Shown: positions 1,668 through 25,356 of the stretch, in pieces
Numbering within the stretch: the stretch's first letter is position 1
Layout of the letters: each line of letters opens with the position of its first letter
Source: Nostoc punctiforme PCC 73102
Lineage (GTDB): Bacteria; Cyanobacteriota; Cyanobacteriia; Cyanobacteriales; Nostocaceae
Length of the DNA: 32,000 bases
Assembly: GCF_000020025.1 (NCBI RefSeq)
Contig: NC_010628.1
Coordinates: forward strand, 5,160,001 to 5,192,000
Reading direction: 5' to 3'
Notes under the pieces: model-generated
The model's input: only the letters and a program-made list of their open reading frames with translations
The model's database searches: none
What the model was told of the DNA's origin: nothing
Translations under genes and position numbers: made by a program

Positions 1668-2237
1668 TTACGCAGTCACCTTTAACCATCCAAAAATATC
1701 ACCTACCTTCAACTGTAACCCCTGACAAAATTCTGGCACTGGTAAAACAGACTCAATTTCCTCAAAAGGTAAAGGTTGTTGTCCCGCAGGATAAGCAGCA
1801 ATGAATCGCTCATCAGGATCAATTAACCAACCCATTTGAGTTCCATGATTGAGAGCGTGTAAGATTTTTTTTGTAACTTTTGTATGGCTTTGTTCGGGTG
1901 AGAGAATTTCGATTATCCAGTCGGGTGCTACAGTAAATGTATTGGCAATATCACCATTTTCATCTACGGGAAGCCTTGCCCAAGAAAATACAGCGACATC
2001 GGGAACTATAGAACGTCCTGCAAAAGTGCAACGCAATTCTGGAAAAGCCCAACCCATTTTTTGGATTTTGATAACAGAATTGATTGCGGGACAGAGTTCT
2101 CCTTGAATAGTACTATGTTTTCTTTGAGGCATAGGTTTTGGAACAATTTGACCGTCAATGTATTCACAGTACGGTTTAGTTTCTGGTAGTGCGAGAAACT
2201 CTTCTAGAGTCAATCTTTTATTTGATATTTGTACCAT
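1668..2237 (-). CDS. Uma2 family (DUF820) restriction-endonuclease-fold protein
   Basis: 189-aa ORF with the typical Uma2 N-terminus (LTLEEFLALPETKPYCEYIDGQIVPKPMP), a PDVAVF motif and an IIEILSP motif. This family is highly expanded in cyanobacteria. Confidence 0.8.
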   Translation of the reverse strand: MVQISNKRLTLEEFLALPETKPYCEYIDGQIVPKPMPQRKHSTIQGELCPAINSVIKIQKMGWAFPELRCTFAGRSIVPDVAVFSWARLPVDENGDIANTFTVAPDWIIEILSPEQSHTKVTKKILHALNHGTQMGWLIDPDERFIAAYPAGQQPLPFEEIESVLPVPEFCQGLQLKVGDIFGWLKVTA

Positions 2238-4262: not shown

Positions 4263-5048
4263 ATGCGCTTTTTTAATCGCATCACATTCCAGACTCCAGA
4301 AAGTGTAGAGTTGGAATTTACTTTAGCGGGAATTGGTAATCGAGCTTTAGCGCTGCTGATTGACTATGCAGTGTTGGGTATAACTTTGCTTCTGTTTGTC
4401 TTTACCTGGACTGTCTTTTCAACGCAGCTGGTAAATTTTCTTGAAGACTTTTTTACGAGTTTACCAAATTTAGACATTTGGTTGTTAGCAATTTTCTTCA
4501 TTATTACCTTTGTAATTTACATCAGCTATTTTGTATTTTTTGAAACCTTATGGTTTGGGCAAACCCCTGGTAAACGGGTTGCTAAAATTCGCGTAGTTCG
4601 AGATGATGGCAGGCTCATTGGGTTACAACAAGCAACTCTCCGTGCCCTATTGCGACCCTTTGATGAGATTTTATTTATTGGCGCTTTTTTAATTATGTTG
4701 GGTAGTCGTGAAAAGCGTTTAGGTGATTTGGCTGCCGGTACAATTGTAATTCAAGCTGAAATACCCATCGCATCGGCGACATTGACAATTTCAGAACAGG
4801 CAAAGGAACTTCATGAACAGTTAATCCAAATCGCCGATTTATCGAAATTATTGCCCGATGATTTTGCAGTTATTCGTGAATATTTGCAGCGACGGGCTGC
4901 AATGTCATTAAAGGCAAGAGCCTCACTATCTCTAAAGTTAGCCGAGCAAGTAGTAGCTATTATTAATTTAGAAAACTTGCCAGAAGCTGTTACACCTGAT
5001 GTATTTTTAGAAGCTGTTTATCTCGTATATCAAGAACCTAAATTTTAG
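4263..5048 (+). CDS. RDD family membrane protein
   Basis: 261-aa ORF with an N-terminal RDD-type TM domain (ALALLIDYAVL ... GQTPGKRVAKIRVVRDDG) and a soluble helical C-terminus. Confidence 0.8.
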   Translation: MRFFNRITFQTPESVELEFTLAGIGNRALALLIDYAVLGITLLLFVFTWTVFSTQLVNFLEDFFTSLPNLDIWLLAIFFIITFVIYISYFVFFETLWFGQTPGKRVAKIRVVRDDGRLIGLQQATLRALLRPFDEILFIGAFLIMLGSREKRLGDLAAGTIVIQAEIPIASATLTISEQAKELHEQLIQIADLSKLLPDDFAVIREYLQRRAAMSLKARASLSLKLAEQVVAIINLENLPEAVTPDVFLEAVYLVYQEPKF

Positions 5049-5109
5049 GCGAGAGATTTTATTTACAGCATTGACAAAAAGTTAAGTTTATCTAAAAGAC
5101 AAAATCATA

Positions 5110-5160
5110 ATCAGTAGTTAGTTGCCAGTAAGTGGAAACTACTGGCTACTAACTACTGAT
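5110..5160. terminator. Long hairpin between convergent genes, a probable bidirectional terminator
   Basis: The 21-nt arms 5110-5130 and 5140-5160 (atcagtagttagtTgccagta / tactggcTactaactactgat) are complementary with one mismatch and enclose a 9-nt loop. The hairpin lies between the RDD gene stop (5048) and the stop of the 5168-5959 gene. Confidence 0.6.
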
Positions 5161-5167
5161 TAATGAC

Positions 5168-5959
5168 TTAAAAATCTAAAATCGGCCAATCTGGTTCACG
5201 ATAATAGTGTGTCATGTTGTCAAATTTTCGCAATTCGACACGATTGATCGAAAATTCTGGCAAATTAAACAGCCATTTTTCATTCAATTCCGAAAGCTTT
5301 GTGCTGAAACTTGTGCGATCTAAGTCAGATGAAACCTCCCCAAAATAGGCTAATGTAACATGGGCAGTGAAATGATAATGCTGCTCAATACCCAAGGCAA
5401 TCAACTTGGGATTTTGATAAATTGTTCGGCGGAACTTAATAATTTCCTCATAGCAGCTTTCATCTTGAGGTACTAAACAAACAGCTATAGCTCTTGGCAT
5501 CAGTATCAGTCCCAGCATTTGCCATTTAATCGGATGACTCCTATTTGTCATCAATTGTTGATATTGCTGAAACATTTCGGCTAAACAAGAGGGTAACTCC
5601 TCGTCAAATTTAGGATTCTTTTCGCGGGCATCAAGGTAAGCATGATCCCAAATTAAATCCGCTAAAGTTACATGGAAGCTAGCAGGAGGTACAGGTATAA
5701 TCAAATTACGGTTTACAGGCAACTGCAAAAGTTCCTGTTGGTAAGTCTGTAATTTGGCATAGAAAGCAGAATTTTCTGATTCTTCTTCTGCCGCAGGCGG
5801 TGTAATTAGCGTATACCCAGGAAAAGACGCTGCTTCTCTCAAGCCAGAATTTGGCTGAAATTTAGAAGATTCCTGAATATGCTGGGCTTGGGATCTGTAG
5901 GCTTCTGGCAGCGTCAGTCGTGCTAACCGATTTAAGTAAGTTTGATAGTTGTCGTCCAA
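5168..5959 (-). CDS. 2H-phosphoesterase-superfamily-like protein (LigT / cyclic phosphodiesterase-like; possibly DUF1868)
   Basis: 263-aa ORF with two H-x-T-x motifs in the expected arrangement: FHVTLADL in the N-terminal half and AHVTLAYFG in the C-terminal half. Confidence 0.6.
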   Translation of the reverse strand: MDDNYQTYLNRLARLTLPEAYRSQAQHIQESSKFQPNSGLREAASFPGYTLITPPAAEEESENSAFYAKLQTYQQELLQLPVNRNLIIPVPPASFHVTLADLIWDHAYLDAREKNPKFDEELPSCLAEMFQQYQQLMTNRSHPIKWQMLGLILMPRAIAVCLVPQDESCYEEIIKFRRTIYQNPKLIALGIEQHYHFTAHVTLAYFGEVSSDLDRTSFSTKLSELNEKWLFNLPEFSINRVELRKFDNMTHYYREPDWPILDF

Positions 5960-6124
5960 TCTTCATAGCCTCACGCTCTCACTTGATAGATTTTAGGGAA
6001 AATTACCCCGAATAAGAGAATGATTTTAAAAGTATTTAGTTTTTGGGGCTGAGGGAGTTAGCAGTTAGGAGTTTTAAGCATTCTTCCCCAATGAGCCATT
6101 CCCCATGCCCAATGAGGTTTATCT

Positions 6125-9897: not shown

Positions 9898-12800
9898 TTA
9901 ATTAGGCTTACCCGTAATTGTAAATGCTGCCCAGTAGTAAGGATGATTATAAAGATTTTTATCTGATGCCATTTTACTATTTCTATATAGTTGCGTCGCT
10001 AAATAAGTTTGAATCCGTAATTCTTCAGGATGCAGATTATTCAAAATATCTTCATACCATTTTGTCAGTTCTCCAGCAGTTAGTTCTTTCAGCCACCGTG
10101 TTGCTTCCGCTAAGGCAGTAACTGCTGATTTATTAAGCTGTAATCTCCGATAAAATTCTATCATTACCAAGGCACTAGCTGAAGATTCTACACTCCAGAG
10201 AGTACTAACTATATGAGGCACACCCTGACTTACAAAACTACTGGCTAAACTCACATATTCACTGCTGATAGTGTGGTTGTTAATACTTAAATTTTCACAC
10301 GCAGAGAGAGTAATCAGGTTGTAAGTTGATAGATTTTGTTGATAAATTTCATCTAGAGTCAGTTTTTCTTCACCTGCTAATGCTAATTCTGACTTTTTGG
10401 GTTCAGCTAAATTATTAGTGACATGACCTGTAAAATGAAAAATATTGTAATTATCAAACAAGGCATTTTCAACAATATTTTTTGTAGCTTCTGCTCCCTG
10501 AATTCGTTGGATATTATTGAACATCTGGCTCACAACTTCAGATTCGAGTTTGGCAAATTTTAGTGGAGGATAACCTGCACTTTCAGGATGTTCAACACTG
10601 AGCAATAACTGATTTTGCCATTGCCAAATATCTTCAGTTCTTATTGATAAACCTATTTGGGCACTAGGTAGATAGGTGACGGTGAAATTGGACTCCACAT
10701 TCGGCAACTCTTCTTGGGATGGGGAAGAAAGATGAAAAAGCGTATGAATGGGCAATCTGTACAAGTCGCGGTGAGGAATTAAAACCAGTTGGGTGATGCC
10801 TTCGAGTTCCTGGGCAATTGTGGAAATATTCAAGATGCCATACAACTGCACTAGCTTCTGTTCCATATCCACTCGCCAAGAATGCTGGCTTTTACTTTCT
10901 TTGTCTTGGGCTGTGGTGCGATATTCTTGGTATTGTTGATGCCAATCTTCTAGCCAATTTTCAAATTCAATTAGGCGTTGCACTGCTTCAGGTAGCGGCA
11001 ATTCATTGAGACGAATAGCGTCTTCTCCTAAAGGTATTGCCCCAGCATCTTGCATGGGTGTAAACAGGAGAATCGGTGATGGCGCTTGGTCTTTGAGAAT
11101 GAAAGTATGTAGGGCGACTGGACTAATATGCCAGTAAATAATTGCTGTTGTGGGATTAAATAGTTGTTGAATTGCGCCATAATGGGGCGAGTAAAAATTA
11201 TTATTCCAGCCAGAAAGTAGCCAGTTTAAACAAGCATTTTTGCCCTGTTCGGCAATTTCCCAAGCTTCAACTAAATCACCAGACTCTACTGCTAAATCAA
11301 CTGCCAATTGATCAAAGCCTGCAAATTTCAAAGCTAGCTGTTTTTTACTTTCGTCTGAGCGAGTCTCTTCACTCAGCAATTGTCGCAATAAATCTGTACC
11401 GCGTTGTAGCAATTCTTGAACTTGTGTTGTTTGTCCCAAACCCATCAGTACTTTGCTTAGAGATTGCAAAACCTCAAGGTGGAACAGGGGAAAATATTCT
11501 AGTGTCAGCGTTAACAACGCCTGATGGTACTCAGATGCAGCTTTGCGCCAATAATCGCGGGGATTGGGATGTTTCTTGCCTTGGTCGTAATAAGTATTAG
11601 CGATCGCCAGATGCAATCTACCCCAACCTTCTGGGTGGGTATCTGTCCGCAGATGTTTTAACCCTTCTTCGTAGCTGGCTAATTTTCCTTCGTAGCCGCC
11701 CTGTTGTAGGGCGGGATTTGCCGCCGTTATATTACTCGACAAATTCAGCAATGCGTCAGAATTTACTAAATTACCGATCGCAGTTCCCCGACCAATCCAA
11801 GCTTCCCAATAATCTTGTTTAATTTCCAAAGCGTTATCATAACAAGCGATCGCTTCGGCAAATTGTTCTAAATAAAACAGCGCTACTGCCTGATTATACC
11901 AAGCTAAGTGGAAGTCAGGTTTGATGGCGATCGCTTGGCGATAGGAAGCGATCGCTTCTTGGCGACGACCTAAGTTGTCTAATGCTATACCTCGGTTGTA
12001 CCAAGCTAAGTAGAAGTCGGCTTGAACTGAAAGGGCTTTATCCCAGGAGGCGATCGCTTCTGACCACCTTCCTAGATTAAACAGCACTACACCCCGGTCT
12101 ATCCAAACTTCGTGGTACTCTGGGTTAATTTCTAGGGCTTTGTCGTAGGATATAATCGCCTCTGCAAATTGTTCGCCTACAGCTAGGGCTATCCCTCGGT
12201 GATACCAGTTTTCCTGGTCTTCTGGTTCCAAATGCAGCGCTTGATCGTAACTATAAATAGCTTCTGGTAGCCAACCTAACTTCAGTAGCGCCAAACCCTT
12301 GCTAGACCAAGCTTCTTGGTAGTCTGGCTTGACTTCTATGGCTTTGTCAAAAGAAGCGATCGCTTCTTCAAAATATCCTAATTCCCCGAGAGTTCCACCC
12401 CGGTTGTACCAAGCTTTGTAGAAGTCGGGTTTTAGTTCTATGGCGGTTTCGTAAGATGCGATCGCTTCTTCAAAACGTTCTAAATGGAACAGTATCAAGC
12501 CTCGATTAAACCAATACTCTGAGAATTCAGGTTGAAGTTCAATAGCTCGATCGTAAGATGCGATCGCGCCTAACAAATCACCTGTTTTCGCTTGGCTTAG
12601 ACCTTGGTAAAACCATCCTTGAGCGTTAGTAATCGGATTATTGCTATGTCGCTCAATAATACCAGGAGAATTACTGCTTTGAACTGCCAAGTTAGAAGCA
12701 AGCTGCTGGACTAAATTGGTACTCTGATCCAATTTCACCCACAACTCATCTAATGTATTAGCTACATTTGGCTCTAAATTTGTCAAAGCGCTATCCCAGT

Positions 12801-13866
12801 TTTCCACTGAGGGAGAAGAAGTTGTTAATTCACTTCTTGGCCTAGTAGAAAGGAGATTTACTCCTGTTGTACTTTGAACAACTTCTTCATCATCGAACCT
12901 CAGTTGGGCTAATGAGGTGATTGAATCTTCCTTTGCGGGGAGAGGGAGATTTGCGGGTATTGTGGTTTGGGCTTCTTCCCTTTCATACTCCAATACCAGT
13001 TCCTCTAAATTTTCGGTGAATGTTTCCTCAAAAGAGACATTTTCAGATGCTGGCGTGATTGGTTCAACATCTGGCACATTATATTCCCATAACTGCTCAC
13101 CTAAGCTACGAATTAGCTCTTGCCCAGGCGAAATTGGGATAATTTCTTCATCGGTTGTGATTTCTACAACATCTGGCTCATCATACTCCCATAACTGCTC
13201 GCCTAAATTGCGGATTAGTTCTTCCCCAGGAGTGATTTCTACGACATCTGGCTCATCATACTCCCATAACTGCTCGCCTAAATTACGGATCAGTTCTTCC
13301 CCAGGAGTAGTTTCTATGACATCTGGCTCATCATACTCCCATAACTGCTCGCCTAAATTGCCGATCAGTTCTTCCCCAGGAGCGATTTCTACCCCATATT
13401 GTTCAGGAGTAATTTCTAAGCCCGCTTCTGGATAATTCTCCTCATCCTCTATCTGTGTAGGTGAGTTTTGCATCATTCGGATGCCAATGTCATAAGCAAC
13501 ATCTCCAATTCTGCCAACACCAAGTTCCCCCAATTGCACCATCTGTGATGCTAAAAGAGGATTCGGCGCAGGTGAAGCTAGCAAGCTTTCGCCAAACGTC
13601 ACCAACCAATCTATCCAGCGTTCAGCCGGAATTCGATTTTCGACCCGTTGCAGATACCTCAATGCCCACTGTCGTCCTCGTGCTTGATGCACGCCTTCTA
13701 ACAATTGGATAAACAATTGTTCCAGATCCGCATTGGTTAGTTCTGGTAGTATCTCCACCAGATTGTGTCCTCTTGCACCCTTGAGAGAACTAGCCTGCTT
13801 ACTTTCAATGAGGCGCTTTAAAAGCCTTTTAAGCGACTGCGATATCCGCCTGAGCATCTGCCACAC
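9898..13866 (-). CDS. Large multidomain protein: N-terminal module, WEY tandem repeats, 8 TPR repeats, a helical region and a C-terminal CHAT (caspase-like protease) domain
   Basis: The 1322-aa ORF has eight 34-aa TPRs with conserved (E)AIASY..A(I/L)E..P. The C-terminal CHAT hallmarks are LVLIPHRDLYRLPIHTLF, a His motif (FHFTGHV) and a Cys motif (ITLSACEN). Confidence 0.9.
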   Translation of the reverse strand: MWQMLRRISQSLKRLLKRLIESKQASSLKGARGHNLVEILPELTNADLEQLFIQLLEGVHQARGRQWALRYLQRVENRIPAERWIDWLVTFGESLLASPAPNPLLASQMVQLGELGVGRIGDVAYDIGIRMMQNSPTQIEDEENYPEAGLEITPEQYGVEIAPGEELIGNLGEQLWEYDEPDVIETTPGEELIRNLGEQLWEYDEPDVVEITPGEELIRNLGEQLWEYDEPDVVEITTDEEIIPISPGQELIRSLGEQLWEYNVPDVEPITPASENVSFEETFTENLEELVLEYEREEAQTTIPANLPLPAKEDSITSLAQLRFDDEEVVQSTTGVNLLSTRPRSELTTSSPSVENWDSALTNLEPNVANTLDELWVKLDQSTNLVQQLASNLAVQSSNSPGIIERHSNNPITNAQGWFYQGLSQAKTGDLLGAIASYDRAIELQPEFSEYWFNRGLILFHLERFEEAIASYETAIELKPDFYKAWYNRGGTLGELGYFEEAIASFDKAIEVKPDYQEAWSSKGLALLKLGWLPEAIYSYDQALHLEPEDQENWYHRGIALAVGEQFAEAIISYDKALEINPEYHEVWIDRGVVLFNLGRWSEAIASWDKALSVQADFYLAWYNRGIALDNLGRRQEAIASYRQAIAIKPDFHLAWYNQAVALFYLEQFAEAIACYDNALEIKQDYWEAWIGRGTAIGNLVNSDALLNLSSNITAANPALQQGGYEGKLASYEEGLKHLRTDTHPEGWGRLHLAIANTYYDQGKKHPNPRDYWRKAASEYHQALLTLTLEYFPLFHLEVLQSLSKVLMGLGQTTQVQELLQRGTDLLRQLLSEETRSDESKKQLALKFAGFDQLAVDLAVESGDLVEAWEIAEQGKNACLNWLLSGWNNNFYSPHYGAIQQLFNPTTAIIYWHISPVALHTFILKDQAPSPILLFTPMQDAGAIPLGEDAIRLNELPLPEAVQRLIEFENWLEDWHQQYQEYRTTAQDKESKSQHSWRVDMEQKLVQLYGILNISTIAQELEGITQLVLIPHRDLYRLPIHTLFHLSSPSQEELPNVESNFTVTYLPSAQIGLSIRTEDIWQWQNQLLLSVEHPESAGYPPLKFAKLESEVVSQMFNNIQRIQGAEATKNIVENALFDNYNIFHFTGHVTNNLAEPKKSELALAGEEKLTLDEIYQQNLSTYNLITLSACENLSINNHTISSEYVSLASSFVSQGVPHIVSTLWSVESSASALVMIEFYRRLQLNKSAVTALAEATRWLKELTAGELTKWYEDILNNLHPEELRIQTYLATQLYRNSKMASDKNLYNHPYYWAAFTITGKPN
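13077..13393 (-). repeat. In-frame tandem repeats inside the CHAT gene (three near-identical 75-bp units plus one longer degenerate unit)
   Basis: The units 13169-13243, 13244-13318 and 13319-13393 differ at only a few positions. Each encodes TPGEELIRNLGEQLWEYDEPDVVEI. A degenerate unit lies at 13077-13168. Confidence 0.9.
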
Positions 13867-14753: not shown

Positions 14754-15067
14754 GCGATCGCACTGGACTATGACGTTAGTTCTTTGTCATTTGTCATTAG
14801 TTCTTTTTTCCTAACTTCCGACTCTTGACAAGAACAAATGTACTAAATGCTATGCTATAATTCCGATACATTGATGTTGAAATCATAGTAAAAAATTATG
14901 ATCTGGTTGTTTGCTTTCCTGAGTGCCAAAATTGACGGCATTAGTTGAGTGTAAGCGCTATAGCAACATCGATGAAGAAAGCAGGTACGAGAGTTTAAAA
15001 TAATTGAATCCCAAACTCGACTCGGTGCTACTAATTAACGTTGAAAGGCATTGAAGTCTATTTTTCC

Positions 15068-17191
15068 ATGTCTTACGAACCCCTGCACCATAAATATCGC
15101 CCCAAAAGTTTTGCTGAACTCGTGGGACAAGAGGCGATCGCTACCACCCTCACGAATGCGATCGGCACATCCAAAATCGCCCCCGCCTATTTATTCACTG
15201 GGCCAAGAGGTACGGGGAAAACTTCTAGTGCCCGGATTTTAGCTAAATCTCTCAATTGTCTCAAAAGCGATCGCCCCACTGCTGAACCCTGCGGCGTGTG
15301 TGATGTTTGTCAAGGAATCACCAAGGGTTACGCCTTAGATGTAATTGAAATCGATGCTGCTAGTAACACTGGTGTCGATAATATCCGTGAGTTGATTGAA
15401 AAAGCCCAGTTTGCTCCTGTGCAGTGTCGTTACAAGGTTTATGTAATCGATGAATGTCACATGCTCAGTACCCAGGCATTCAATGCGCTACTTAAGACCC
15501 TAGAAGAGCCACCGAGACACGTAGTTTTTGTATTGGCGACAACAGACCCGCAACGGGTGTTACCAACGATTATTTCGCGCTGTCAAAGGTTTGATTTTAG
15601 ACGTATTCAATTAGAGGCGATGGTTAAGCATTTAAGTGCGATCGCCTCTAAAGAAAATATTCATATTTCACCCGAAGCTGTAACCCTGGTAGCCCAACTT
15701 TCTCAGGGAGGGTTGCGAGATGCCGAAAGCTTGCTCGATCAATTGGGTTTGTTAGCAGGTGTTGTGACACCAGATAGAGTTTGGGATTTGGTCGGGACGG
15801 TAAGCGAACAGGACTTGCTGGGACTTCTAAATGCGATCGCTCAAGATAAACCCGAAGCAGTTCTTGACAGTACCCACAAAATTCTCGATCGTGGTCGAGA
15901 ACCCCTAACTTTTCTGCAAAATCTCGCCGCTTTCTACCGCGATTTACTCATAGCCAAAACAGCACCCAACCGCCACGATTTGGTTGCTTGTACTCAGCAA
16001 ACCTGGACGGCGTTGGTTGAGTTTGCTCAATACTTCGATATGACCATGATTTTGGCAGGACAGGAACACCTGCGAAAAGCTGAAGTGCAAATTAAAAACA
16101 GTACTCAGCCGCGTTTATGGTTGGAAGTAACATTACTAGGATTGTTACCTAGTGCAACGACGAATATTCAACCACAAGCCCCAAATATCGCGCCGCGAGT
16201 TATCCCACCTGCTGTATCTCCAAGCTATCCTCCAGCAGTTACCCAAAATCATGCAGTCTCTTCTTTACCGGTAGCGGAACCGCAAACAAATCATAATTCT
16301 ACACTTCGACAAGGCTCTGTTACCACAAACCATCATGTAGCGATTGCCCAAAATCAGCCTGTCACTTCATCTGGCGCAGTTGAACAGCAAAAAAATCACA
16401 ATTCTGCTGCAAACTCAGTTTCACCACCAACCCCAGAACCTGTTGCTGTTCCTGTACCATCTGCGATCGTTGAAGCAGTAACTTCAGAAGTTGTTGGAGA
16501 AGCACAATATGATTTAACTCAGGTTTGGCAACAGGTGCTTGCTAACCTCCAGCCAAAATCAAGGCAAGAAATGCTGCGTCAAATGAGCCAACTTATAGAG
16601 TTCGACGGTGTTATGGCTCGAATTGCTATCAAACAGGCATGGTATGACAAGGGTAAATCTTATCTACCGATGATTACGGCAGCTTTCCAGCAGACTTTCC
16701 AGCGTGAAATCCAGATAAATATAGAAAAAGGAATTTCTTCAAACTCCACTTCAGCTAAAAAAAATCCTCCGCCAAAAGACTCTAGTCGCGTTCAGCAACC
16801 AGCTACTCCTAGTTACAACCAGCAAATTTCGCCTCCAGCGCTAGTACCACAGCCAGCAACGCCAGCGCCACTAAGAACCGAGCCGCTAGCAAAAAATGGA
16901 AATGGAGCAAATGGAAATGGAGCAAATGGAAATGGAGTAAATGGAAATGGAGTAAATGGAAACGGGGCAAATAGAAATGGGGCAAATAGAAATGGGGCGC
17001 AAACTTTGCCTCCACCGCCACAGCGAACACCCGCACCTGATTGGGAAATTGATGAAGTAGCGATCGCAGCTCAACGTCTAGCAGAATTCTTCAACGGACA
17101 AATTATCCGTTTTACTGAGGATTCAACAGAATTCTCCGATTCCATAGCTACACCTGAATGGGTAGAGGAATCGGAAGTTGATGATGAATAA
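15068..17191 (+). CDS. dnaX: DNA polymerase III gamma/tau subunit DnaX
   Basis: The ORF has Walker A (GPRGTGKTS), a Cys-rich zinc module (CLKSDRPTAEPCGVCDVCQ), Walker B (VIDECHML) and an SRC motif (SRCQRFDF). A long P/Q/N-rich linker is followed by a conserved C-terminus. The start is taken at the ATG at 15068 (MSYEPLHHKYRP); a TTG at 15041 is less likely. Confidence 0.9.
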   Translation: MSYEPLHHKYRPKSFAELVGQEAIATTLTNAIGTSKIAPAYLFTGPRGTGKTSSARILAKSLNCLKSDRPTAEPCGVCDVCQGITKGYALDVIEIDAASNTGVDNIRELIEKAQFAPVQCRYKVYVIDECHMLSTQAFNALLKTLEEPPRHVVFVLATTDPQRVLPTIISRCQRFDFRRIQLEAMVKHLSAIASKENIHISPEAVTLVAQLSQGGLRDAESLLDQLGLLAGVVTPDRVWDLVGTVSEQDLLGLLNAIAQDKPEAVLDSTHKILDRGREPLTFLQNLAAFYRDLLIAKTAPNRHDLVACTQQTWTALVEFAQYFDMTMILAGQEHLRKAEVQIKNSTQPRLWLEVTLLGLLPSATTNIQPQAPNIAPRVIPPAVSPSYPPAVTQNHAVSSLPVAEPQTNHNSTLRQGSVTTNHHVAIAQNQPVTSSGAVEQQKNHNSAANSVSPPTPEPVAVPVPSAIVEAVTSEVVGEAQYDLTQVWQQVLANLQPKSRQEMLRQMSQLIEFDGVMARIAIKQAWYDKGKSYLPMITAAFQQTFQREIQINIEKGISSNSTSAKKNPPPKDSSRVQQPATPSYNQQISPPALVPQPATPAPLRTEPLAKNGNGANGNGANGNGVNGNGVNGNGANRNGANRNGAQTLPPPPQRTPAPDWEIDEVAIAAQRLAEFFNGQIIRFTEDSTEFSDSIATPEWVEESEVDDE
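16895..16999 (+). repeat. Seven tandem 15-bp units inside dnaX encoding (NGNGA)n
   Basis: The units start at 16895, 16910, 16925, 16940, 16955, 16970 and 16985 (aatggaaatggagca and variants). The array is in frame and gives NGNGANGNGANGNGVNGNGVNGNGANRNGANRNGA. Confidence 0.95.
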
Positions 17192-19987: not shown

Positions 19988-20029
19988 AAAACTATCCTAT
20001 GTGATTATAAAACTTACAACTTCTCATCT

Positions 20030-20061
20030 TAAAAACATCTTCTTCTATGAAGATGTTTTTA
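20030..20061. terminator. Perfect 13-bp-stem hairpin in the convergent intergenic region
   Basis: taaaaacatcttc (20030-20042) pairs with gaagatgttttta (20049-20061) around a 6-nt loop. The A/T runs are part of the stem on both strands. Confidence 0.45.
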
Positions 20062-20215
20062 AAGTTTAATTTATTACTCACCTGGGCAACTATTAAGTCA
20101 CAGCTACATGAAACCTTACTTACCCAACTCTATAAGTTAGAAAAACCTTGGTTTTGGTTATTTCAGGAGATGGACTCAGCTTTGTGTAGTAATCACTCTT
20201 AGTCATACAATACTT

Positions 20216-21025
20216 TCAAAATATCTTCTTAGAGCAGATGTGTTTTTTTCTTTTCAAAACCATACCAAAACCAGCTACCAAAAAGGTGCCGAGAACGCTA
20301 GCTGGTTCTGGAATAGAAGTTTCATCAATAGGTACTTTGATTCTTAAATTCGCCAGGGTAGCGTTAGTGATGTTCAAGGATGTTACTGTTGGCGAACCTG
20401 GGATATCAGACTGGAAATCAAAAACTGTGGGAGTTGAGTTACCATTGCGATCGCTATATCGCACTCCATATCCACTTACTTCAAAAGTGCCCTGATACTG
20501 CTTTCCGGTGTCTGGATCGGTGACAGTACCACTGTATAAGGCTTTTATGAAATTAAATTCATCCTGAACTACTCCTTGAAATTTGGTTCCAGCTAATTGT
20601 CCTTGGTATTTATAGGGTGTTAACTGACCACCAGAGAGAACCGGCGATGTGAGAACACCATCGAACGAGACAAAGGGAATACCTTTAAAGTCAACAAAGT
20701 AATGCAGACTTCCATCAGAGCGTGTTTCTACCTGTAAATAGTCTGACTGGTATACAGGAACATAATTAGGATTATTGTTAGTACCTAAGTTCCGGTAATA
20801 AGTTCCAGTGTCATCCGTATCAATACGAGTAATACTGTTATTGAAATTGGGATTATTTCTGGGAAGTTCGATTGTTCCTGATAATGTGCCAGTGCTTTCA
20901 ATTGTAATGAATTGAGCGGCGAAAGCACTTGCTCCACTTAAAGCGATCGTCATTGCTGCTAAACAACTTCCGCTAAGAATTGCACCACCTAGCTTAATCC
21001 CTGATGAACTTACTTTCATTAACAA
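20216..21025 (-). CDS. PEP-CTERM sorting-domain secreted protein
   Basis: The 269-aa ORF has an N-terminal signal peptide and a C-terminal PEP-CTERM signature: IPEPASVLGTFLVAGFGMVLKRKK (a PEP motif, a TM helix and a basic tail). Confidence 0.8.
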   Translation of the reverse strand: MLMKVSSSGIKLGGAILSGSCLAAMTIALSGASAFAAQFITIESTGTLSGTIELPRNNPNFNNSITRIDTDDTGTYYRNLGTNNNPNYVPVYQSDYLQVETRSDGSLHYFVDFKGIPFVSFDGVLTSPVLSGGQLTPYKYQGQLAGTKFQGVVQDEFNFIKALYSGTVTDPDTGKQYQGTFEVSGYGVRYSDRNGNSTPTVFDFQSDIPGSPTVTSLNITNATLANLRIKVPIDETSIPEPASVLGTFLVAGFGMVLKRKKHICSKKIF

Positions 21026-21287
21026 CTTGCTCCTTGAAGCGCCGATAAAAACACACCTAATGCGTTGAGATTTATTTAAAATTTTTCTCAGGCACAGTTT
21101 ATTATTCCCAAGTTTGTGAAGTAAGCTTCATCGAAAACAAAAAATATTTTGATCAAAAGCGGGAACATTTTATCTAGATTGTGATTCAATTCAAACAAGA
21201 TTTATCATAAGCCTATTAATTTTAGTTTTTTTAGCTGAATTTAACTAGCGTTTATTCTGTACAATCATGTAATGCAGATAAATTTTT

Positions 21288-21920
21288 CTAACTATTTTCT
21301 AAGCTTAATAAACTACTAATCAGTTTAGGCAAGCCACTACAGCAGGGATTTGAATGCTCAGATAATTCATTCCGTTCTATCTGCTTTGCCATCTTTTCAG
21401 CACGTTGAATTGCTTGTTCAGTTAATGATTTCAAGGGTTTTGGATATAAGCACATTGATTTGTCATAGTTGGGTATATGCTTGCCGAGTAAATTAACTAA
21501 CCTATCACGATTGATTTGTGCAAAATGGTCTTGAAAGTGAATTAGATACCAGAGTTCAAAACAAGGATTTGTAATTGCGAGATTAATCTTTTGGCTTGTA
21601 GCCCGATTTATTGCACTTTGCCAATTTTCCAGACTCTTTTCAATATGCTCATCTCCATCAAAAACAGCCCAAGCCTCATCTTCTTTACTCCACTGCTGGT
21701 TATCTTTTCTCTGCTGTCGTTCTTCGATGAGTCTTTCAACAATGCTACGTGGATCAGTTTTGTTTTGATGAGGCAATACAATAATATCTAAAGTTGATGA
21801 ACGTAATTCATTGCGGATACTATTGAAATAAATTGGTTCTGTTTTACTTCCTTCACAAGCAATTAGTATTTTCTGAGCAATATTCCTGCTAGGTGGGCGA
21901 CGATTTAACTTTCTTGGCAC
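21288..21920 (-). CDS. RloB-like (AbiLii-like, Toprim-related) protein
   Basis: The 210-aa ORF carries the family hallmarks ILIACEGSKTEPIYF, an acidic AVFDGDEH motif and NPCFELWYLIHF. The GTG start at 21918-21920 overlaps the upstream ATPase gene by 16 nt. Confidence 0.85.
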   Translation of the reverse strand: MPRKLNRRPPSRNIAQKILIACEGSKTEPIYFNSIRNELRSSTLDIIVLPHQNKTDPRSIVERLIEERQQRKDNQQWSKEDEAWAVFDGDEHIEKSLENWQSAINRATSQKINLAITNPCFELWYLIHFQDHFAQINRDRLVNLLGKHIPNYDKSMCLYPKPLKSLTEQAIQRAEKMAKQIERNELSEHSNPCCSGLPKLISSLLSLENS

Positions 21921-23221
21921 TGCTCATCACCCTGTAAAATCATTTCCTCTTCAGATGGGAGAAACGGAACGGCTCCAAAACGACCATCTAAATAAGCTTT
22001 ATCAATTGCCAAATCATTTCGCACATGGAAATCAGTCAAAGGATACAACTCAGTGCTTTGATCATCTCGCTTTTGTGTAAACCAAATTTGATCGCGGCGC
22101 AATAAGTTATTTCTTTGTAATGTATTATCGTGACTAGTTAAAATAAATTGAGCGCGTTTGGGATTTGTTTTAGGATTTTGAAATCTTCTGATAATACTTC
22201 TTACAATATTAGGATGAATGTTTGTGCCTAATTCGTCGACAATTGTCAATCCTCCTATTTTAAGAGCTAGTACTATCCGAAATGCTAAACTAAATAAGCG
22301 TTGAGTTCCAAGAGATTCTTCATCAAAAAGCCAAGCCACTAAATTACCGTCATGGGTATTATGTATAGCATATATATTGTAGTCACTTGGATCATCATGT
22401 TTCTTTACCATATCGATTCTTGACAATCCTGTGTCAAATTTTAGTACAATTTTCAATGCTTCTTCAAAAATTTCATTTACTATGGGATTATCAGTACCTT
22501 GCAGTAATGTAATCGAGGTAGTATCGTACTTTTCATTTCCCAAATTAATTCCAAGCCAGCGAGCTTTTAACCAGCGTAAAAAAGACTCAATTACATCTAC
22601 CTTTAGTTTTACTAATGTACTAATAAATAAATCATTTTCTCTAATATTATCCTGGAGTTGATTATGGGAGCCAGCAAAATCGTCCCCAGTTTTCCAGATA
22701 AATTTTTTACTAATTTCATCCCATTGACGATTAAATAAACGACGAGTCCGCTTAGTTGTGTTTAAAGCATAATCTAACTTTTCTGAGATTATATGATTTT
22801 GATTGATTACTAGGGAATAAGTATAAATATTATTATCTAACAAAGTTCTTAATTCAAATCTTGTAGGTTTTTGAGCAGAGATGCTATCTAACTTGAAAGG
22901 ATCTAGTTTTACATGTTTTAAAATTCTCTGGAATGCAACTGCTTGTTGTGTGCCATAAGCCATCATGATTAGTAGATAATCCAGAGCTTGGATAACATTA
23001 CTCTTGCCTGAAGCATTAGCTCCAAAAATTGCAAGAACAGGTAAAAGTTCAATGTCCCACCCTTCAACATGATATCCAGGTGCAATTTCATGATCTGACT
23101 TTACCCGTTTACGTTTGCTGCTTTGGCTTGTCTGACGATCGCTTTGTTTTTGAGCAACCGCACTTAGGGTTACAGGTTCTTTAATTGAGCGGTAGTTTTC
23201 GACTGTAAAATCTACAAGCAT
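21905..23221 (-). CDS. ABC-type (AAA_15/AAA_21-like) ATPase, AbiLi/AriA-like
   Basis: The 438-aa ORF starts MLVDFTVENYRSIKE. It has Walker A (GANASGKSN), a signature-like ESLGTQRLFSLA, Walker B (LTIVDELGTNIHP) and an H-loop (ILTSHD). Confidence 0.85.
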   Translation of the reverse strand: MLVDFTVENYRSIKEPVTLSAVAQKQSDRQTSQSSKRKRVKSDHEIAPGYHVEGWDIELLPVLAIFGANASGKSNVIQALDYLLIMMAYGTQQAVAFQRILKHVKLDPFKLDSISAQKPTRFELRTLLDNNIYTYSLVINQNHIISEKLDYALNTTKRTRRLFNRQWDEISKKFIWKTGDDFAGSHNQLQDNIRENDLFISTLVKLKVDVIESFLRWLKARWLGINLGNEKYDTTSITLLQGTDNPIVNEIFEEALKIVLKFDTGLSRIDMVKKHDDPSDYNIYAIHNTHDGNLVAWLFDEESLGTQRLFSLAFRIVLALKIGGLTIVDELGTNIHPNIVRSIIRRFQNPKTNPKRAQFILTSHDNTLQRNNLLRRDQIWFTQKRDDQSTELYPLTDFHVRNDLAIDKAYLDGRFGAVPFLPSEEEMILQGDEQCQES

Positions 23222-23436
23222 AATTTAACGCCCACAAGTCAGTTTTTTGTGATTTATTCACGTAAATATTATCTTAAAGGTAAGCAAATCTCCACTTCTA
23301 CCACAACAAATCACATAAACTTGCAGCCAGTGTAAGCTATTACTACACTTTAATACACTCATTAATGCAGAACTCACCACCAGATTTAGATCGACAATAG
23401 GAATATAAGCAGTCTAACCAAAGCAGGTATGGGGCA

Positions 23437-25356
23437 ATGGTGCGATTAAAACCGTGGCAGTGGGTGGTTTTGGCAATCCCGATCGCGTTTATCATTATTT
23501 TTTTACTGGTAGCCGCTGGTTCGCAAATTCATGCGTGGGGTATTAGTTGGATTTGGGGTGTGTTTACCCTTTTATTCGTTGGTTGGCGTTGGCTGCTAGT
23601 CAAATGGACTCAACCAGCTGTTAACCAAGTGGAAGCTGTATTAGCTCAAGTTCAAGAAGAATTAGAATCGGCAGCAGAGGATACAGTTAGACCACCAGCA
23701 GGAAGCGATGTCACAAAGCTTGCAGAAGCCGCACTCCAAGAGATTCTGCAAGCGTCACAAAGCGATCGCCCGATTTGGGAAGACTGGCAAACTTTTTGGA
23801 CGCGATGCCAGGATTTGGTCGTAGCGATCGCTCATATCTACAATCCTCAAATTCAATATCCCCTGCTGAACATTTACGTCCCCCAGGCTTACGGGCTGAT
23901 TCGGGGAACGGTGGATGATATGGATCAGTGGATGCAAAAATTATCCCCTGTTCTTAATCAGGTAACGGTTGGACAAGCATACCAAGGATATGAAGTCTAC
24001 CGAAAGTTGGAACCATCGGCTCGAAAATTTTGGAAAGCTTGGAATTGGGCACAGTGGCTTTTAAATCCGGTGGCGGCGGTGGCAAAACAAGCCAGTCAGG
24101 GTTCTAGTAACCAAGCAACTCAACAATTATTGGGGAATTTGAACCAGCTATTTCGGGAAGCTGCCCTGAAAAACTTGTGTCGGCAGGCGATCGCCCTCTA
24201 TGGACGTAGCAAATTACCAGTTTCAGCAACCGTAGTATCCACACCAACTTTATCCAAGGCAAAAACCCAAACACTGCGAGAAATACTGACTCAAGCTCAA
24301 CCAGCCGAGGTAGTTGAGCAAAAACCCGTGAATATTCTGCTGGTGGGGCGCACAGGTTCAGGAAAAAGTAGCCTGATTAACACGCTATTTCAGGCAGATT
24401 TAGCGGCCGTTGATGTTTTGCCCAGTACGGATCGCATTCAAAATTATCAATGGCAAACTCAAAGTGGTGAAACCTTGACGCTTTTGGACACACCTGGCTA
24501 CGAACAAGTCAACCATGCCGATCTGCGAAACCTGGTGCTTGATTATGCTATCGATGCAGATTTGCTGCTGTTAGTCACCCCTGCCCTCGATCCTGCTCTG
24601 CAAATGGATGTAGACTTTCTGCAAGACATCAAAGCAGAAGTTGCGGATTTACCTGCGATCGCGATCGTCACTCAAGTAGATCGGCTGCGTCCCATCCGCG
24701 AATGGCAACCGCCTTATGATTGGGAATGGGGCGATCGCCCAAAAGAAATTGCCATTCGAGAAGCTACTGAGTATCGCGCCAAATTGCTGGGAAAATTCTG
24801 TAATCTAGTTCTACCCCTGGTTACAGGTGACAGCAAAACAGGTCGAGTTGCCTGGGGAGTGGATACGCTTTCACTGGGATTAGTAGATGCGATCGCACCT
24901 ACCAAGCAACTCCGTCTCGCCCGATTTTTGCGTAACCTTGAAGCCCGTACCGTCGCTGCTGCCAAAATCATCGACCACTACACCTTCCAGATGGCGACAA
25001 CTCAAGGACTAACGGCATTGCTCAAAAGTCCCGTCCTCCAGTTTGTTTCTACGCTCTCAACCGGATCTCCAGCGCTAGCATATATGCTGGCAGAACAAAT
25101 TCCCGTGGAACAGTTACCGATTGTGATTGGCAAACTCCAAATGGGATATGAGCTTTTCTCGCTTTTGAATATAGCTAACCCTAACCCGCTCAACTTTGAA
25201 TTGCTATCCCTCTGGCCGCTACTGCTAGAAAATTCCACTTCACCCGATCGCAATGCCTGGGCATTTGGTCACGCCCTAGTGGAGTACTGGACTCAGAATC
25301 TAACGGTTGAACAACTCCGGGAGCGATTTGAGTATTATCTGTCAATTGCCAAATAA
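23437..25356 (+). CDS. Membrane-anchored GTPase of unknown function
   Basis: The 639-aa ORF has two N-terminal TM helices. A central GTPase domain carries G1 (GRTGSGKSS), G3 (DTPG) and G4 (TQVD). The C-terminal domain is uncharacterised. Confidence 0.8.
   Translation: MVRLKPWQWVVLAIPIAFIIIFLLVAAGSQIHAWGISWIWGVFTLLFVGWRWLLVKWTQPAVNQVEAVLAQVQEELESAAEDTVRPPAGSDVTKLAEAALQEILQASQSDRPIWEDWQTFWTRCQDLVVAIAHIYNPQIQYPLLNIYVPQAYGLIRGTVDDMDQWMQKLSPVLNQVTVGQAYQGYEVYRKLEPSARKFWKAWNWAQWLLNPVAAVAKQASQGSSNQATQQLLGNLNQLFREAALKNLCRQAIALYGRSKLPVSATVVSTPTLSKAKTQTLREILTQAQPAEVVEQKPVNILLVGRTGSGKSSLINTLFQADLAAVDVLPSTDRIQNYQWQTQSGETLTLLDTPGYEQVNHADLRNLVLDYAIDADLLLLVTPALDPALQMDVDFLQDIKAEVADLPAIAIVTQVDRLRPIREWQPPYDWEWGDRPKEIAIREATEYRAKLLGKFCNLVLPLVTGDSKTGRVAWGVDTLSLGLVDAIAPTKQLRLARFLRNLEARTVAAAKIIDHYTFQMATTQGLTALLKSPVLQFVSTLSTGSPALAYMLAEQIPVEQLPIVIGKLQMGYELFSLLNIANPNPLNFELLSLWPLLLENSTSPDRNAWAFGHALVEYWTQNLTVEQLRERFEYYLSIAK

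Follow-up and report, generated by a model that had tools for sequence, protein, structure and literature searches.

An AbiL-type ATPase-RloB gene pair with a putative defence role in a variable chromosomal slot of Nostoc punctiforme

AbiL, carried by plasmid pND861 of Lactococcus lactis, is grouped among the defence systems that combine an ABC ATPase with a TOPRIM protein (PMC11464382; PMC13064643), and its founding member confers phage resistance (Deng 1999, in so far as that work is cited in PMC10440598 and PMC13064643), this lactococcal archetype being the only one known to owe an abortive-infection phenotype to both genes. In the PARIS system the AriB subunit is an anticodon-arm tRNase, and P2 OLD acts likewise and is abortive, according to a 2026 preprint. 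The RloB family, to which the second AbiL component (AbiLii) corresponds, has been placed together with DUF4276 in the Toprim superfamily, with the Glu and DxD motifs (PMC12065111; for RloB also PMC10440598). Here we describe two overlapping genes located at positions 21288 to 23221 of a 32,000-nucleotide stretch of Nostoc punctiforme PCC 73102 (contig NC_010628.1, positions 5,160,001 to 5,192,000; hereafter the window). The pair, which is chromosomal, almost certainly belongs to the AbiL (RloA/RloB) family, and a role in defence is probable. It is an ordinary member of an already catalogued type and not a new system.

The upstream gene (21905-23221, minus strand, ATG start) encodes an AbiLi/RloA-type ABC ATPase of 438 amino acids (ACC82507.1, WP_012410474.1, B2J7R2), and the downstream gene (21288-21920, minus strand, GTG start) an RloB/AbiLii-type protein of 210 amino acids (ACC82506.1, WP_012410473.1, B2J7R1) that is a putative Toprim-like nuclease effector. 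The ATPase is 100% identical to ACC82507.1 of N. punctiforme ATCC 29133 / PCC 73102, named "AAA family ATPase" in the database, whereas its partner ACC82506.1 is called "RloB family protein" by NCBI and "Abortive phage resistance protein" by UniProt (B2J7R1). Pfam AAA_21 matches the ATPase at 5.7e-53 and Pfam RloB (PF13707) matches the 210-residue protein at 1.2e-47 over profile positions 1-195 of 195; the PADLOC model AbiLi (PDLC02335) covers residues 1-429 of the ATPase with E = 1.6e-83, and AbiLii (PDLC02337) matches RloB at 5.3e-25. NCBIfam offers no specific or usable family for either protein. These scores, together with the invariant catalytic residues described below, indicate that the motif pattern is not a product of chance, and the two PADLOC matches imply that standard defence finders would call the pair AbiL. 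All the traits of AbiL that can be inspected computationally are present: an AbiLi ATPase, an AbiLii/RloB protein, and adjacency on the same strand with the ATPase first. Hence the RloB/AbiL identity proposed by a first-pass annotation of this DNA holds, whereas the novelty that it attached to the pair was overstated, since the architecture already bears the name AbiL and the protein already that of an abortive phage resistance protein.

The two genes overlap by 16 nucleotides (21905-21920, minus strand), a putative site of translational coupling, and a purine-rich GGUGAUGAG immediately precedes the GTG start of rloB. The same overlap is found in 28 intact Nostocales loci, with Anabaena, Dolichospermum, Cuspidothrix and Sphaerospermopsis using ATG in place of the GTG; conservation of the junction across these loci therefore supports both the GTG start and the overlap that had been read from the sequence. 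The cassette promoter presumably lies in the 215-bp intergenic region (23222-23436) that the ATPase gene shares with a divergently transcribed GTPase gene. A consensus scan of this region returned no minus-strand promoter, promoter and terminator matches as a whole not exceeding those in shuffled controls.

The ATPase contains the complete motif set of the ABC / Rad50-SMC-head superfamily, with the four motifs quoted by the first-pass annotation in place: Walker A, GANASGKSN (22997-23023; amino acids 67-75, with Lys73), invariant in alignment A2; the ABC signature, SLGTQRL (22295-22315; amino acids 303-309), with S303, G305 and T306 invariant; Walker B, LTIVDELG (22226-22249; amino acids 325-332), with D329 and the catalytic E330 invariant; and the H-loop, LTSHD (22127-22141; amino acids 361-365), with H364 and D365 invariant, all on the minus strand and with invariance judged among 26 homologues. 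Sequence and profile searches of the PDB returned no match for the ATPase, so that by sequence no member of its family has a solved structure. In Foldseek comparisons of its structural model (predicted local distance difference test, pLDDT, 67) the best PDB matches were the Rad50 heads of P. furiosus, with E = 8e-9 and template-modelling (TM) scores of only about 0.4, followed by retron PtuA-type ATPases, SMC and RecF; no reverse transcriptase lies near the pair. The model comprises two ABC half-domains separated by a helical insertion, with helices between amino acids 186 and 260. By position the insertion would be equivalent to the coiled-coil of Rad50, SMC and AriA, which in AriA is the trigger-binding site.

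Two parts of the ATPase are hypervariable. Patch 1 (22907-22966, minus strand; amino acids 86-105) forms the end of the long helix after the P-loop, and patch 2 (22436-22591, minus strand; amino acids 211-262), with predicted helices at 212-220, 230-241 and 246-260, lies in the insertion between the half-domains; both were recognized by their entropy, which peaks in patch 2, and have ratios of nonsynonymous to synonymous substitution (dN/dS, omega) of 0.52 and 0.57, respectively. Patch 2 is a candidate trigger-sensing surface. Moreover, a basic, KRKRVK-rich insertion of about 18 amino acids, SKRKRVKSDHEIAPGYHV (23066-23119, minus strand; amino acids 35-52), lies within the N-terminal hairpin that precedes the Walker A strand. 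A basic insert of about 40 amino acids had been pointed out at this place; the insertion exists, but only these 18 or so residues are extra, as some 20 residues between strand beta2 and the Walker A strand are common to all members of the family. The insertion is restricted to a cyanobacterial clade (Nostocales and Pseudanabaena), is conserved in Nostocales with an omega of 0.09, and is absent from the homologues of Planctomycetota, archaea, Bacteroidales, Firmicutes and Patescibacteria. It is predicted to be disordered (pLDDT below 50 at amino acids 26-46) and, speculatively, may contribute nucleic-acid contacts. The ATPases of the cyanobacterial clade differ also in lacking a segment of 30-60 residues that distant homologues have before the signature motif.

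The RloB motifs reported by the first-pass annotation are likewise all present on the minus strand. In the first, ILIACEGSKTEP (21834-21869; amino acids 18-29), Glu23 follows predicted strand beta1 and takes the position of the Toprim catalytic Glu; in the second, VFDGDEH (21645-21665; amino acids 86-92), Asp88 and Asp90 follow predicted strand beta3 at the position of the Toprim DxD; the third, NPCFELWYLIHF (21534-21569; amino acids 118-129), is a family motif with invariant Glu122, Trp124 and His128. The residues E23, G24, T27, E28, Y31, D88, E122, W124, H128 and Y152 do not vary down to 24% identity, and an alignment spanning 24-79% identity has only D or E at position 90. The model of RloB shows the order beta-alpha-beta-alpha-beta-alpha-beta, with strands 16-22 and 82-87 preceding E23 and D88-G-D90, respectively. 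Hence the protein has both elements by which Toprim proteins are defined from sequence, a Glu on the beta1-alpha1 loop and a DxD after beta3 (PMC12065111). DUF4276 matched two of 18 diverse RloB proteins at 6e-5, and a BFVD structure search with the RloB model retrieved only an RloB-like phage protein (TM 0.70). The family is large, with 9,851 clusters at 50% identity for E <= 1e-3 and 5,038 for E <= 1e-10; among the best 150 clusters most proteins stand alone with about 200-230 amino acids, and some are shorter fragments.

Compared with the described systems, the closest is AbiL of L. lactis, in which the ATPase also comes first and RloB second, with 453 and 206 amino acids (PMC13064643) against 438 and 210 here; this likeness is one of PADLOC models and protein sizes rather than of direct comparison, no Lactococcus record being among the plasmid matches listed. 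The lactococcal pair is plasmid-borne, whereas that of Nostoc is chromosomal, in a filamentous cyanobacterium, and occupies a fixed syntenic slot across a bacterial family; among AbiL relatives the cyanobacterial ATPases stand apart by the extra 18-residue loop and the missing pre-signature segment. An 'unnamed two-gene system in Nostoc sp.' (Makarova 2011), possibly of this family, is mentioned in PMC13064643 and in the PARIS paper.

The comparison with OLD, Gabija and PARIS made by the first-pass annotation is a fair analogy, but the pair belongs to none of them. It shares with PARIS the split of the ABC ATPase and a small nuclease into a coupled pair, the occurrence on phages, on plasmids and in P2-like hotspots, and a variable insertion that separates the ABC half-domains and would correspond in place to the trigger-binding site of AriA. 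Unlike PARIS, its RloB has 210 amino acids, compared with the 35 kDa of AriB, and gave no AriB or DUF4435 match in PADLOC and Pfam, its only defence-model matches being AbiLii and two weak PDC-M12B models; the match of the ATPase to a PADLOC model named AriA (1e-43, 304-position profile) spans the generic AAA_21 core. The authors of PARIS consider AbiL structurally distinct, and a 2026 review finds that AbiLii and AriB superpose poorly (PMC13064643). With P2 Old and other OLD proteins the pair has in common the ABC ATPase plus Toprim logic, and a homologous pair is found at the old/tin position of a P2-like Klebsiella prophage; OLD and GajA, however, are single fused polypeptides, whereas the Nostoc ATPase and RloB are two open reading frames (ORFs). 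From Gabija it is further separated by a GajA match to the ATPase of only 6.7e-06, and partial, and by the absence of a GajB-type UvrD-like helicase flanking the pair. The Mad3/Mad4 proteins of MADS and the NsnB/NsnC variants of Menshen also join an AAA_21-type ATPase to a small Toprim-like domain (DUF4276 or RloB); the ATPase weakly matches mad3, and RloB domains serve as Menshen effectors (PMC12065111). Those systems, however, are multi-gene and contain methylation or ParB-like sensor components, none of which is near the Nostoc pair.

On the basis of the analogy with PARIS (AriA/AriB) and P2 OLD, we propose that the pair is likely to be a two-gene anti-phage module of AbiL type in which the ATPase would sense infection and control the putative RloB nuclease, with abortive infection as the outcome. 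Tentatively, and with less assurance than for this general scheme, the steps would be those of a sequester-and-release tRNase. In the model, coupled translation would fix the ratio of ATPase to RloB and favour their assembly into a complex, in which an ATPase oligomer would hold the nuclease inactive. A phage-derived trigger would then be recognized by the hypervariable helical insertion (amino acids 211-262, with amino acids 86-105), and binding or hydrolysis of ATP would release or activate RloB. The freed nuclease would cut an essential nucleic acid, stopping phage production at the cost of growth arrest; its preferred target, after AriB and OLD, would be the anticodon arms of host tRNAs, with DNA as the alternative. 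In line with a toxic effector, AbiLii of F. nucleatum is toxic in E. coli (Dy et al. 2014, PMC3985639).

The alternative target leads to a different mode of action of the same proteins, similar to that of Gabija GajA or of class 1 OLD, in which RloB would nick or degrade phage DNA without cleaving tRNA and the ATPase would possibly recognize a DNA structure first. The ATPase does resemble the DNA-binding heads of Rad50, SMC and RecF, the basic disordered loop of the cyanobacterial clade could contact nucleic acid, and OLD nucleases of classes 1 and 2 nick DNA or act as exonucleases (PMC10568477; PMC12392090). We nevertheless consider it unlikely: AriB and P2 OLD, the two closest ABC plus Toprim systems that have a resolved mechanism and a Toprim that can be released or activated, cleave tRNA in vivo, lactococcal AbiL acts after phage transcription (review table in PMC13064643), and the toxicity of the F. 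nucleatum AbiLii is exerted on uninfected E. coli (PMC3985639).

The organization of the pair is maintained far beyond Nostoc. In a genome scan with RloB as the query, which gave 60 loci, the ATPase gene was directly upstream of rloB in nearly every locus holding both genes, and this order was seen in Planctomycetota, Bacteroidales, Firmicutes, Patescibacteria and the archaea Methanomassiliicoccus and Methanosarcinaceae, with junctions ranging from overlaps of 1-32 nucleotides to gaps of up to 59 nucleotides. It holds as well for 27 of 27 IMG/VR viral contigs. In E. coli, Klebsiella and Salmonella the pair, with an 8-nucleotide overlap, is the sole cargo besides Rop of mobilizable plasmids of 3.5-5.2 kb, some copies being annotated 'RloA' or 'abiLI'; thus in the ColE1-like E. 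coli plasmid pPSS-04_5 (L065, 3916 bp) the only annotated genes are the pair and rop. In the P2-like Klebsiella prophage ST13-OXA48phi12.1 (L066) the pair has the replication endonuclease/DinI genes on one side and the portal gene on the other, which is the position of tin and old in P2.

As the rlo family was named from type I restriction-modification (RM) loci (PMC12065111; PMC10440598), a role of the pair as an RM accessory has to be weighed, in which it would guard a type I RM system, e.g. by sensing anti-restriction proteins as PARIS does. In a qualitative comparison of the neighbourhoods of 14 distant homologous loci, type I methyltransferases were near two; one neighbouring protein matched a type I restriction-enzyme model and another Avs4, L022 was accompanied by a PDC-S70 gene, and a few loci had extra AAA_21 ATPases, the remaining neighbours being housekeeping genes. 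Linkage to RM genes is therefore confined to a minority of distant loci, most homologous loci having no RM neighbour, and the pair travels alone on plasmids and phages. Unlike the type I RM-linked rloAB, the Nostoc pair has no hsdR, hsdM or hsdS gene in the window; the absence of adjacent RM genes noted in the first pass extends to the whole 32 kb, whose only nuclease-like ORF is a Uma2-family gene. The RM-accessory explanation is thus poorly supported and very improbable.

Nostoc genomes can do without the locus, which is polymorphic among them. Nucleotide homology to Nostoc genomes in which the site is empty or otherwise filled ends at 19993 and restarts at 23419, delimiting a slot of about 3.4 kb (19994-23418) between ebsA and the GTPase gene, with a GC content of 0.33-0.36 against 0.43-0.49 in the flanks; it contains the cassette and an ORF of 269 amino acids. 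The cassette is present in the slot of Nostoc sp. ATCC 53789, while the slot is empty in N. flagelliforme CCNUN1. Toxin-antitoxin-like pairs take the place of the cassette in two others, a DUF433/DUF5615 pair in N. commune NIES-4072 and a small ORF with a PIN protein in N. sphaeroides; these alternative contents were found by retrieving loci through the GTPase (L062, L063 and L064, around 4800-6000). The ebsA-GTPase interval is hence a site at which small toxin or defence modules are swapped in Nostoc. No tRNA gene and no Rfam family is found in the window. As the slot has no integrase or transposase and the repeats at its boundaries are only short and at chance level, it is not recognizable as a mobile element. 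The first-pass description of the pair as alone between housekeeping-type genes is true of its surroundings, but the pair itself lies inside a low-GC variable slot and not in core DNA.

On the other side of the slot, the pair adjoins the same divergent GTPase gene in 33 cyanobacterial loci of Nostoc, Komarekiella, Cuspidothrix, Anabaena, Sphaerospermopsis and some Dolichospermum, with GTPase identities of 68-99%. The GTPase (23437-25356, plus strand) has 639 amino acids, is membrane-anchored and was found in every Nostoc genome examined, whether or not the cassette was there; its G domain alone (residues 225-384) matches the Eleos LeoA/LeoBC dynamin-like defence models with E of about 1e-12. 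Such a neighbourhood would be expected if the pair had a housekeeping function tied to the GTPase, and the weak resemblance of the G domain to the Eleos defence GTPases could be counted on the same side. However, N. flagelliforme, N. commune and N. sphaeroides retain the GTPase but lack the pair, and two Dolichospermum loci, Pseudanabaena and all non-cyanobacterial loci have the pair without the GTPase; the two are divergently transcribed, the cassette differs in GC content, and it has been repeatedly deleted. A GTPase-linked housekeeping role is poorly supported and extremely improbable, the co-occurrence data largely refuting it, and the GTPase was rejected as a third component because it and the pair each occur without the other. 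The first-pass annotation had reasoned that homologues sitting in conserved syntenic housekeeping operons would speak against defence. The pair does keep the same Nostocaceae site beside the GTPase, yet it is divergent from it and its slot varies by presence and absence; given the GC trough, the polymorphic slot and the delimited 3.4-kb boundaries, conserved synteny does not refute a defence role.

Independent internal deletions of the cassette, of 0.8-1.3 kb and with different endpoints, were found in five other Nostoc genomes, corresponding in the window to 22648-21822 (L030), 22844-21762 (L031), 23161-21836 (L035), 22831-21624 (L036) and 22721-21459 (L045). In each case the 5' end of the ATPase gene is left joined to the 3' part of rloB and the RloB catalytic residues are lost; none of the deletions removes the ATPase alone. 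Nostoc sp. LEGE 12450 (L002) has a broken ATPase gene and an intact rloB; as the break is a single frameshift in an assembly of 7x coverage, this genome was not used as a case of tolerance to RloB alone.

The deletions bear on the explanation that the pair is a selfish toxin-antitoxin addiction module with no real role in defence, in which loss of the ATPase would unleash the RloB toxin. In all five of them the catalytic 5' end of rloB is taken together with the 3' end of the ATPase gene; moreover, DUF433/DUF5615 or PIN-type pairs are found in the slot of other Nostoc genomes, 3.9-kb plasmids have no cargo other than the pair and Rop, and in the NetFlax toxin-antitoxin network an RloB node is linked to AAA 'antitoxins', with AAA plus RloB/TOPRIM combinations (PMC10440598). 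The deletion pattern is nonetheless weak evidence, as losses of 0.8-1.3 kb in a 1.9-kb cassette would usually span the junction anyway, and AbiLi is not antitoxic in trans (PMC3985639). The phage resistance given by the founding AbiL in the cited work of Deng, the position of homologues at the old/tin defence site of P2 and the hypervariable patches of the ATPase, which fit the recognition of a trigger better than plain addiction, make addiction alone decidedly improbable. It should be added that toxin-antitoxin behaviour and defence are not mutually exclusive.

Relative to the window copy, the ATPase has an omega of 0.13-0.30, RloB one of 0.07-0.24 and the GTPase one of 0.06-0.11, and this purifying selection, seen in all three, indicates that the pair is functional. 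Within Nostoc amino acid identities are 73-93% for the ATPase, 89-98% for RloB and 89-99% for the GTPase, and the variability of the ATPase is concentrated, as judged by entropy, at amino acids 86-105 and 205-300; in a set of 20 Nostoc-clade alleles the catalytic core has an omega of 0.00-0.09, and the elevated values given above are those of the two patches. The synonymous divergence (dS) of the ATPase is at odds with that of its flanks: L001 and L003 have values of 0.43 for the ATPase, 0.06 for RloB and 0.2 for the GTPase, and Komarekiella (L019) has 0.17 for the ATPase but 0.72 for the GTPase. A few discrete allele classes can be told apart in the variable segment, and they are discordant with the phylogeny of the flanks (L001-L020), Komarekiella belonging to the class of N. 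punctiforme and a near-identical Nostoc strain to a different one, while the adjacent rloB is nearly constant. These data fit a sensor surface that diversifies and is exchanged by recombination, and suggest that the exchange of alleles is limited to the sensor gene. Between Nostoc and Anabaena the dS of the cassette is low relative to that of the GTPase, which could reflect a recent transfer or a composition artefact of AT-rich genes.

A more far-reaching interpretation, to which we give little credence, makes the cyanobacterial AbiL clade a distinct sub-type that would have occupied a single slot since the early Nostocaceae, with long-lived classes of sensor alleles (amino acids 86-105 and 211-262) exchanged across species and genera as a balanced trans-species polymorphism of an immune receptor, a different trigger (e.g. 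a nucleic acid in place of a protein), and an RloB representing a new class of Toprim tRNase. The basic disordered loop and the trimmed helical insertion would then reflect the different trigger.

Several observations weigh against an AbiL-type module that acts by release of a Toprim nuclease in abortive infection. Regarding the effector, confidence in the model of RloB is only moderate (pLDDT 70), and Foldseek gave it no significant match in the PDB, the best (E = 0.03) being to unrelated alpha/beta folds; PDB sequence and profile searches with RloB were empty, so that by sequence there is no solved structure of the family, and alignment of its profile with P2 Old by hhalign was not significant (probability 0.1), only CEGsKTEP and VEGK-TE being aligned. 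Regarding its control, lactococcal AbiLii is not toxic in E. coli, and AbiLi supplied from a second plasmid did not neutralize the F. nucleatum AbiLii (PMC3985639), a failure in trans that argues against a simple antitoxin-sequestration model. The trigger, target, architecture and stoichiometry of AbiL are not reported in the literature searchable to mid-2026. Regarding defence, the variable patches have dN/dS values below 1, which falls short of demonstrating positive selection; such lasting occupation of a single syntenic site in Nostocaceae is unusual for a freely mobile defence gene; and the neighbourhoods of distant homologues are only partly defence-like.

Other features of the window were noted in passing. 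The neighbouring genes are recR, dnaX, ebsA and those for a CHAT-TPR protein, a GT2 glycosyltransferase, a hybrid histidine kinase and a PFOR. The TPR-CHAT protein (9898-13866, minus strand; 1322 amino acids) is not adjacent to the cassette and gave no specific defence-system match, and neither did the Uma2-family putative endonuclease (1668-2237, minus strand), which is 19 kb from the cassette. Within the slot, the 269-residue ORF (20216-21025, minus strand) has a signal peptide and a PEP-CTERM-like C-terminus (PEP, a hydrophobic stretch and KRKK), matches nothing in Pfam or PADLOC, and is present or absent among Nostoc loci independently of the cassette. A perfect 14-nucleotide inverted repeat with a 6-nucleotide loop (TTAAAAACATCTTC / GAAGATGTTTTTAA; 20029-20062) lies about 85 nucleotides downstream of ebsA, just inside the slot boundary, and may be a bidirectional terminator. 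The dnaX gene of the window (15041-17191, plus strand) is intein-free and encodes 716 amino acids, whereas in N. flagelliforme (L062, 1-2238) the product has 1117 amino acids and an Intein_splicing domain; in L002-L004, L008 and L010 the tblastn match to dnaX begins only at residue 102-135, as would be expected if an intein insertion near amino acid 116 were polymorphic among Nostoc.

For genome annotation, this means a routine AbiL call, with no reason to mark the pair as a new system. AbiL, described in 1999, is one of the last systems combining an ABC ATPase with a Toprim-like protein for which no mechanism is available; the Nostoc locus leaves that situation unchanged, being one of thousands of equally suitable entry points, and plasmids of the pPSS-04_5 type and prophage ST13-OXA48phi12.1 would provide convenient enterobacterial models for experiments on AbiL-type systems. 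What is known of AbiL is extended modestly by the clade-specific loop, by the fixed slot and by the allele classes. What the Nostoc locus does offer is a genetically tractable cyanobacterial member of the family, with about 20 natural sensor alleles paired with a nearly constant effector; together with the natural null alleles and the empty sites, it could be used to map the determinants of specificity and to test defence against cyanophages.

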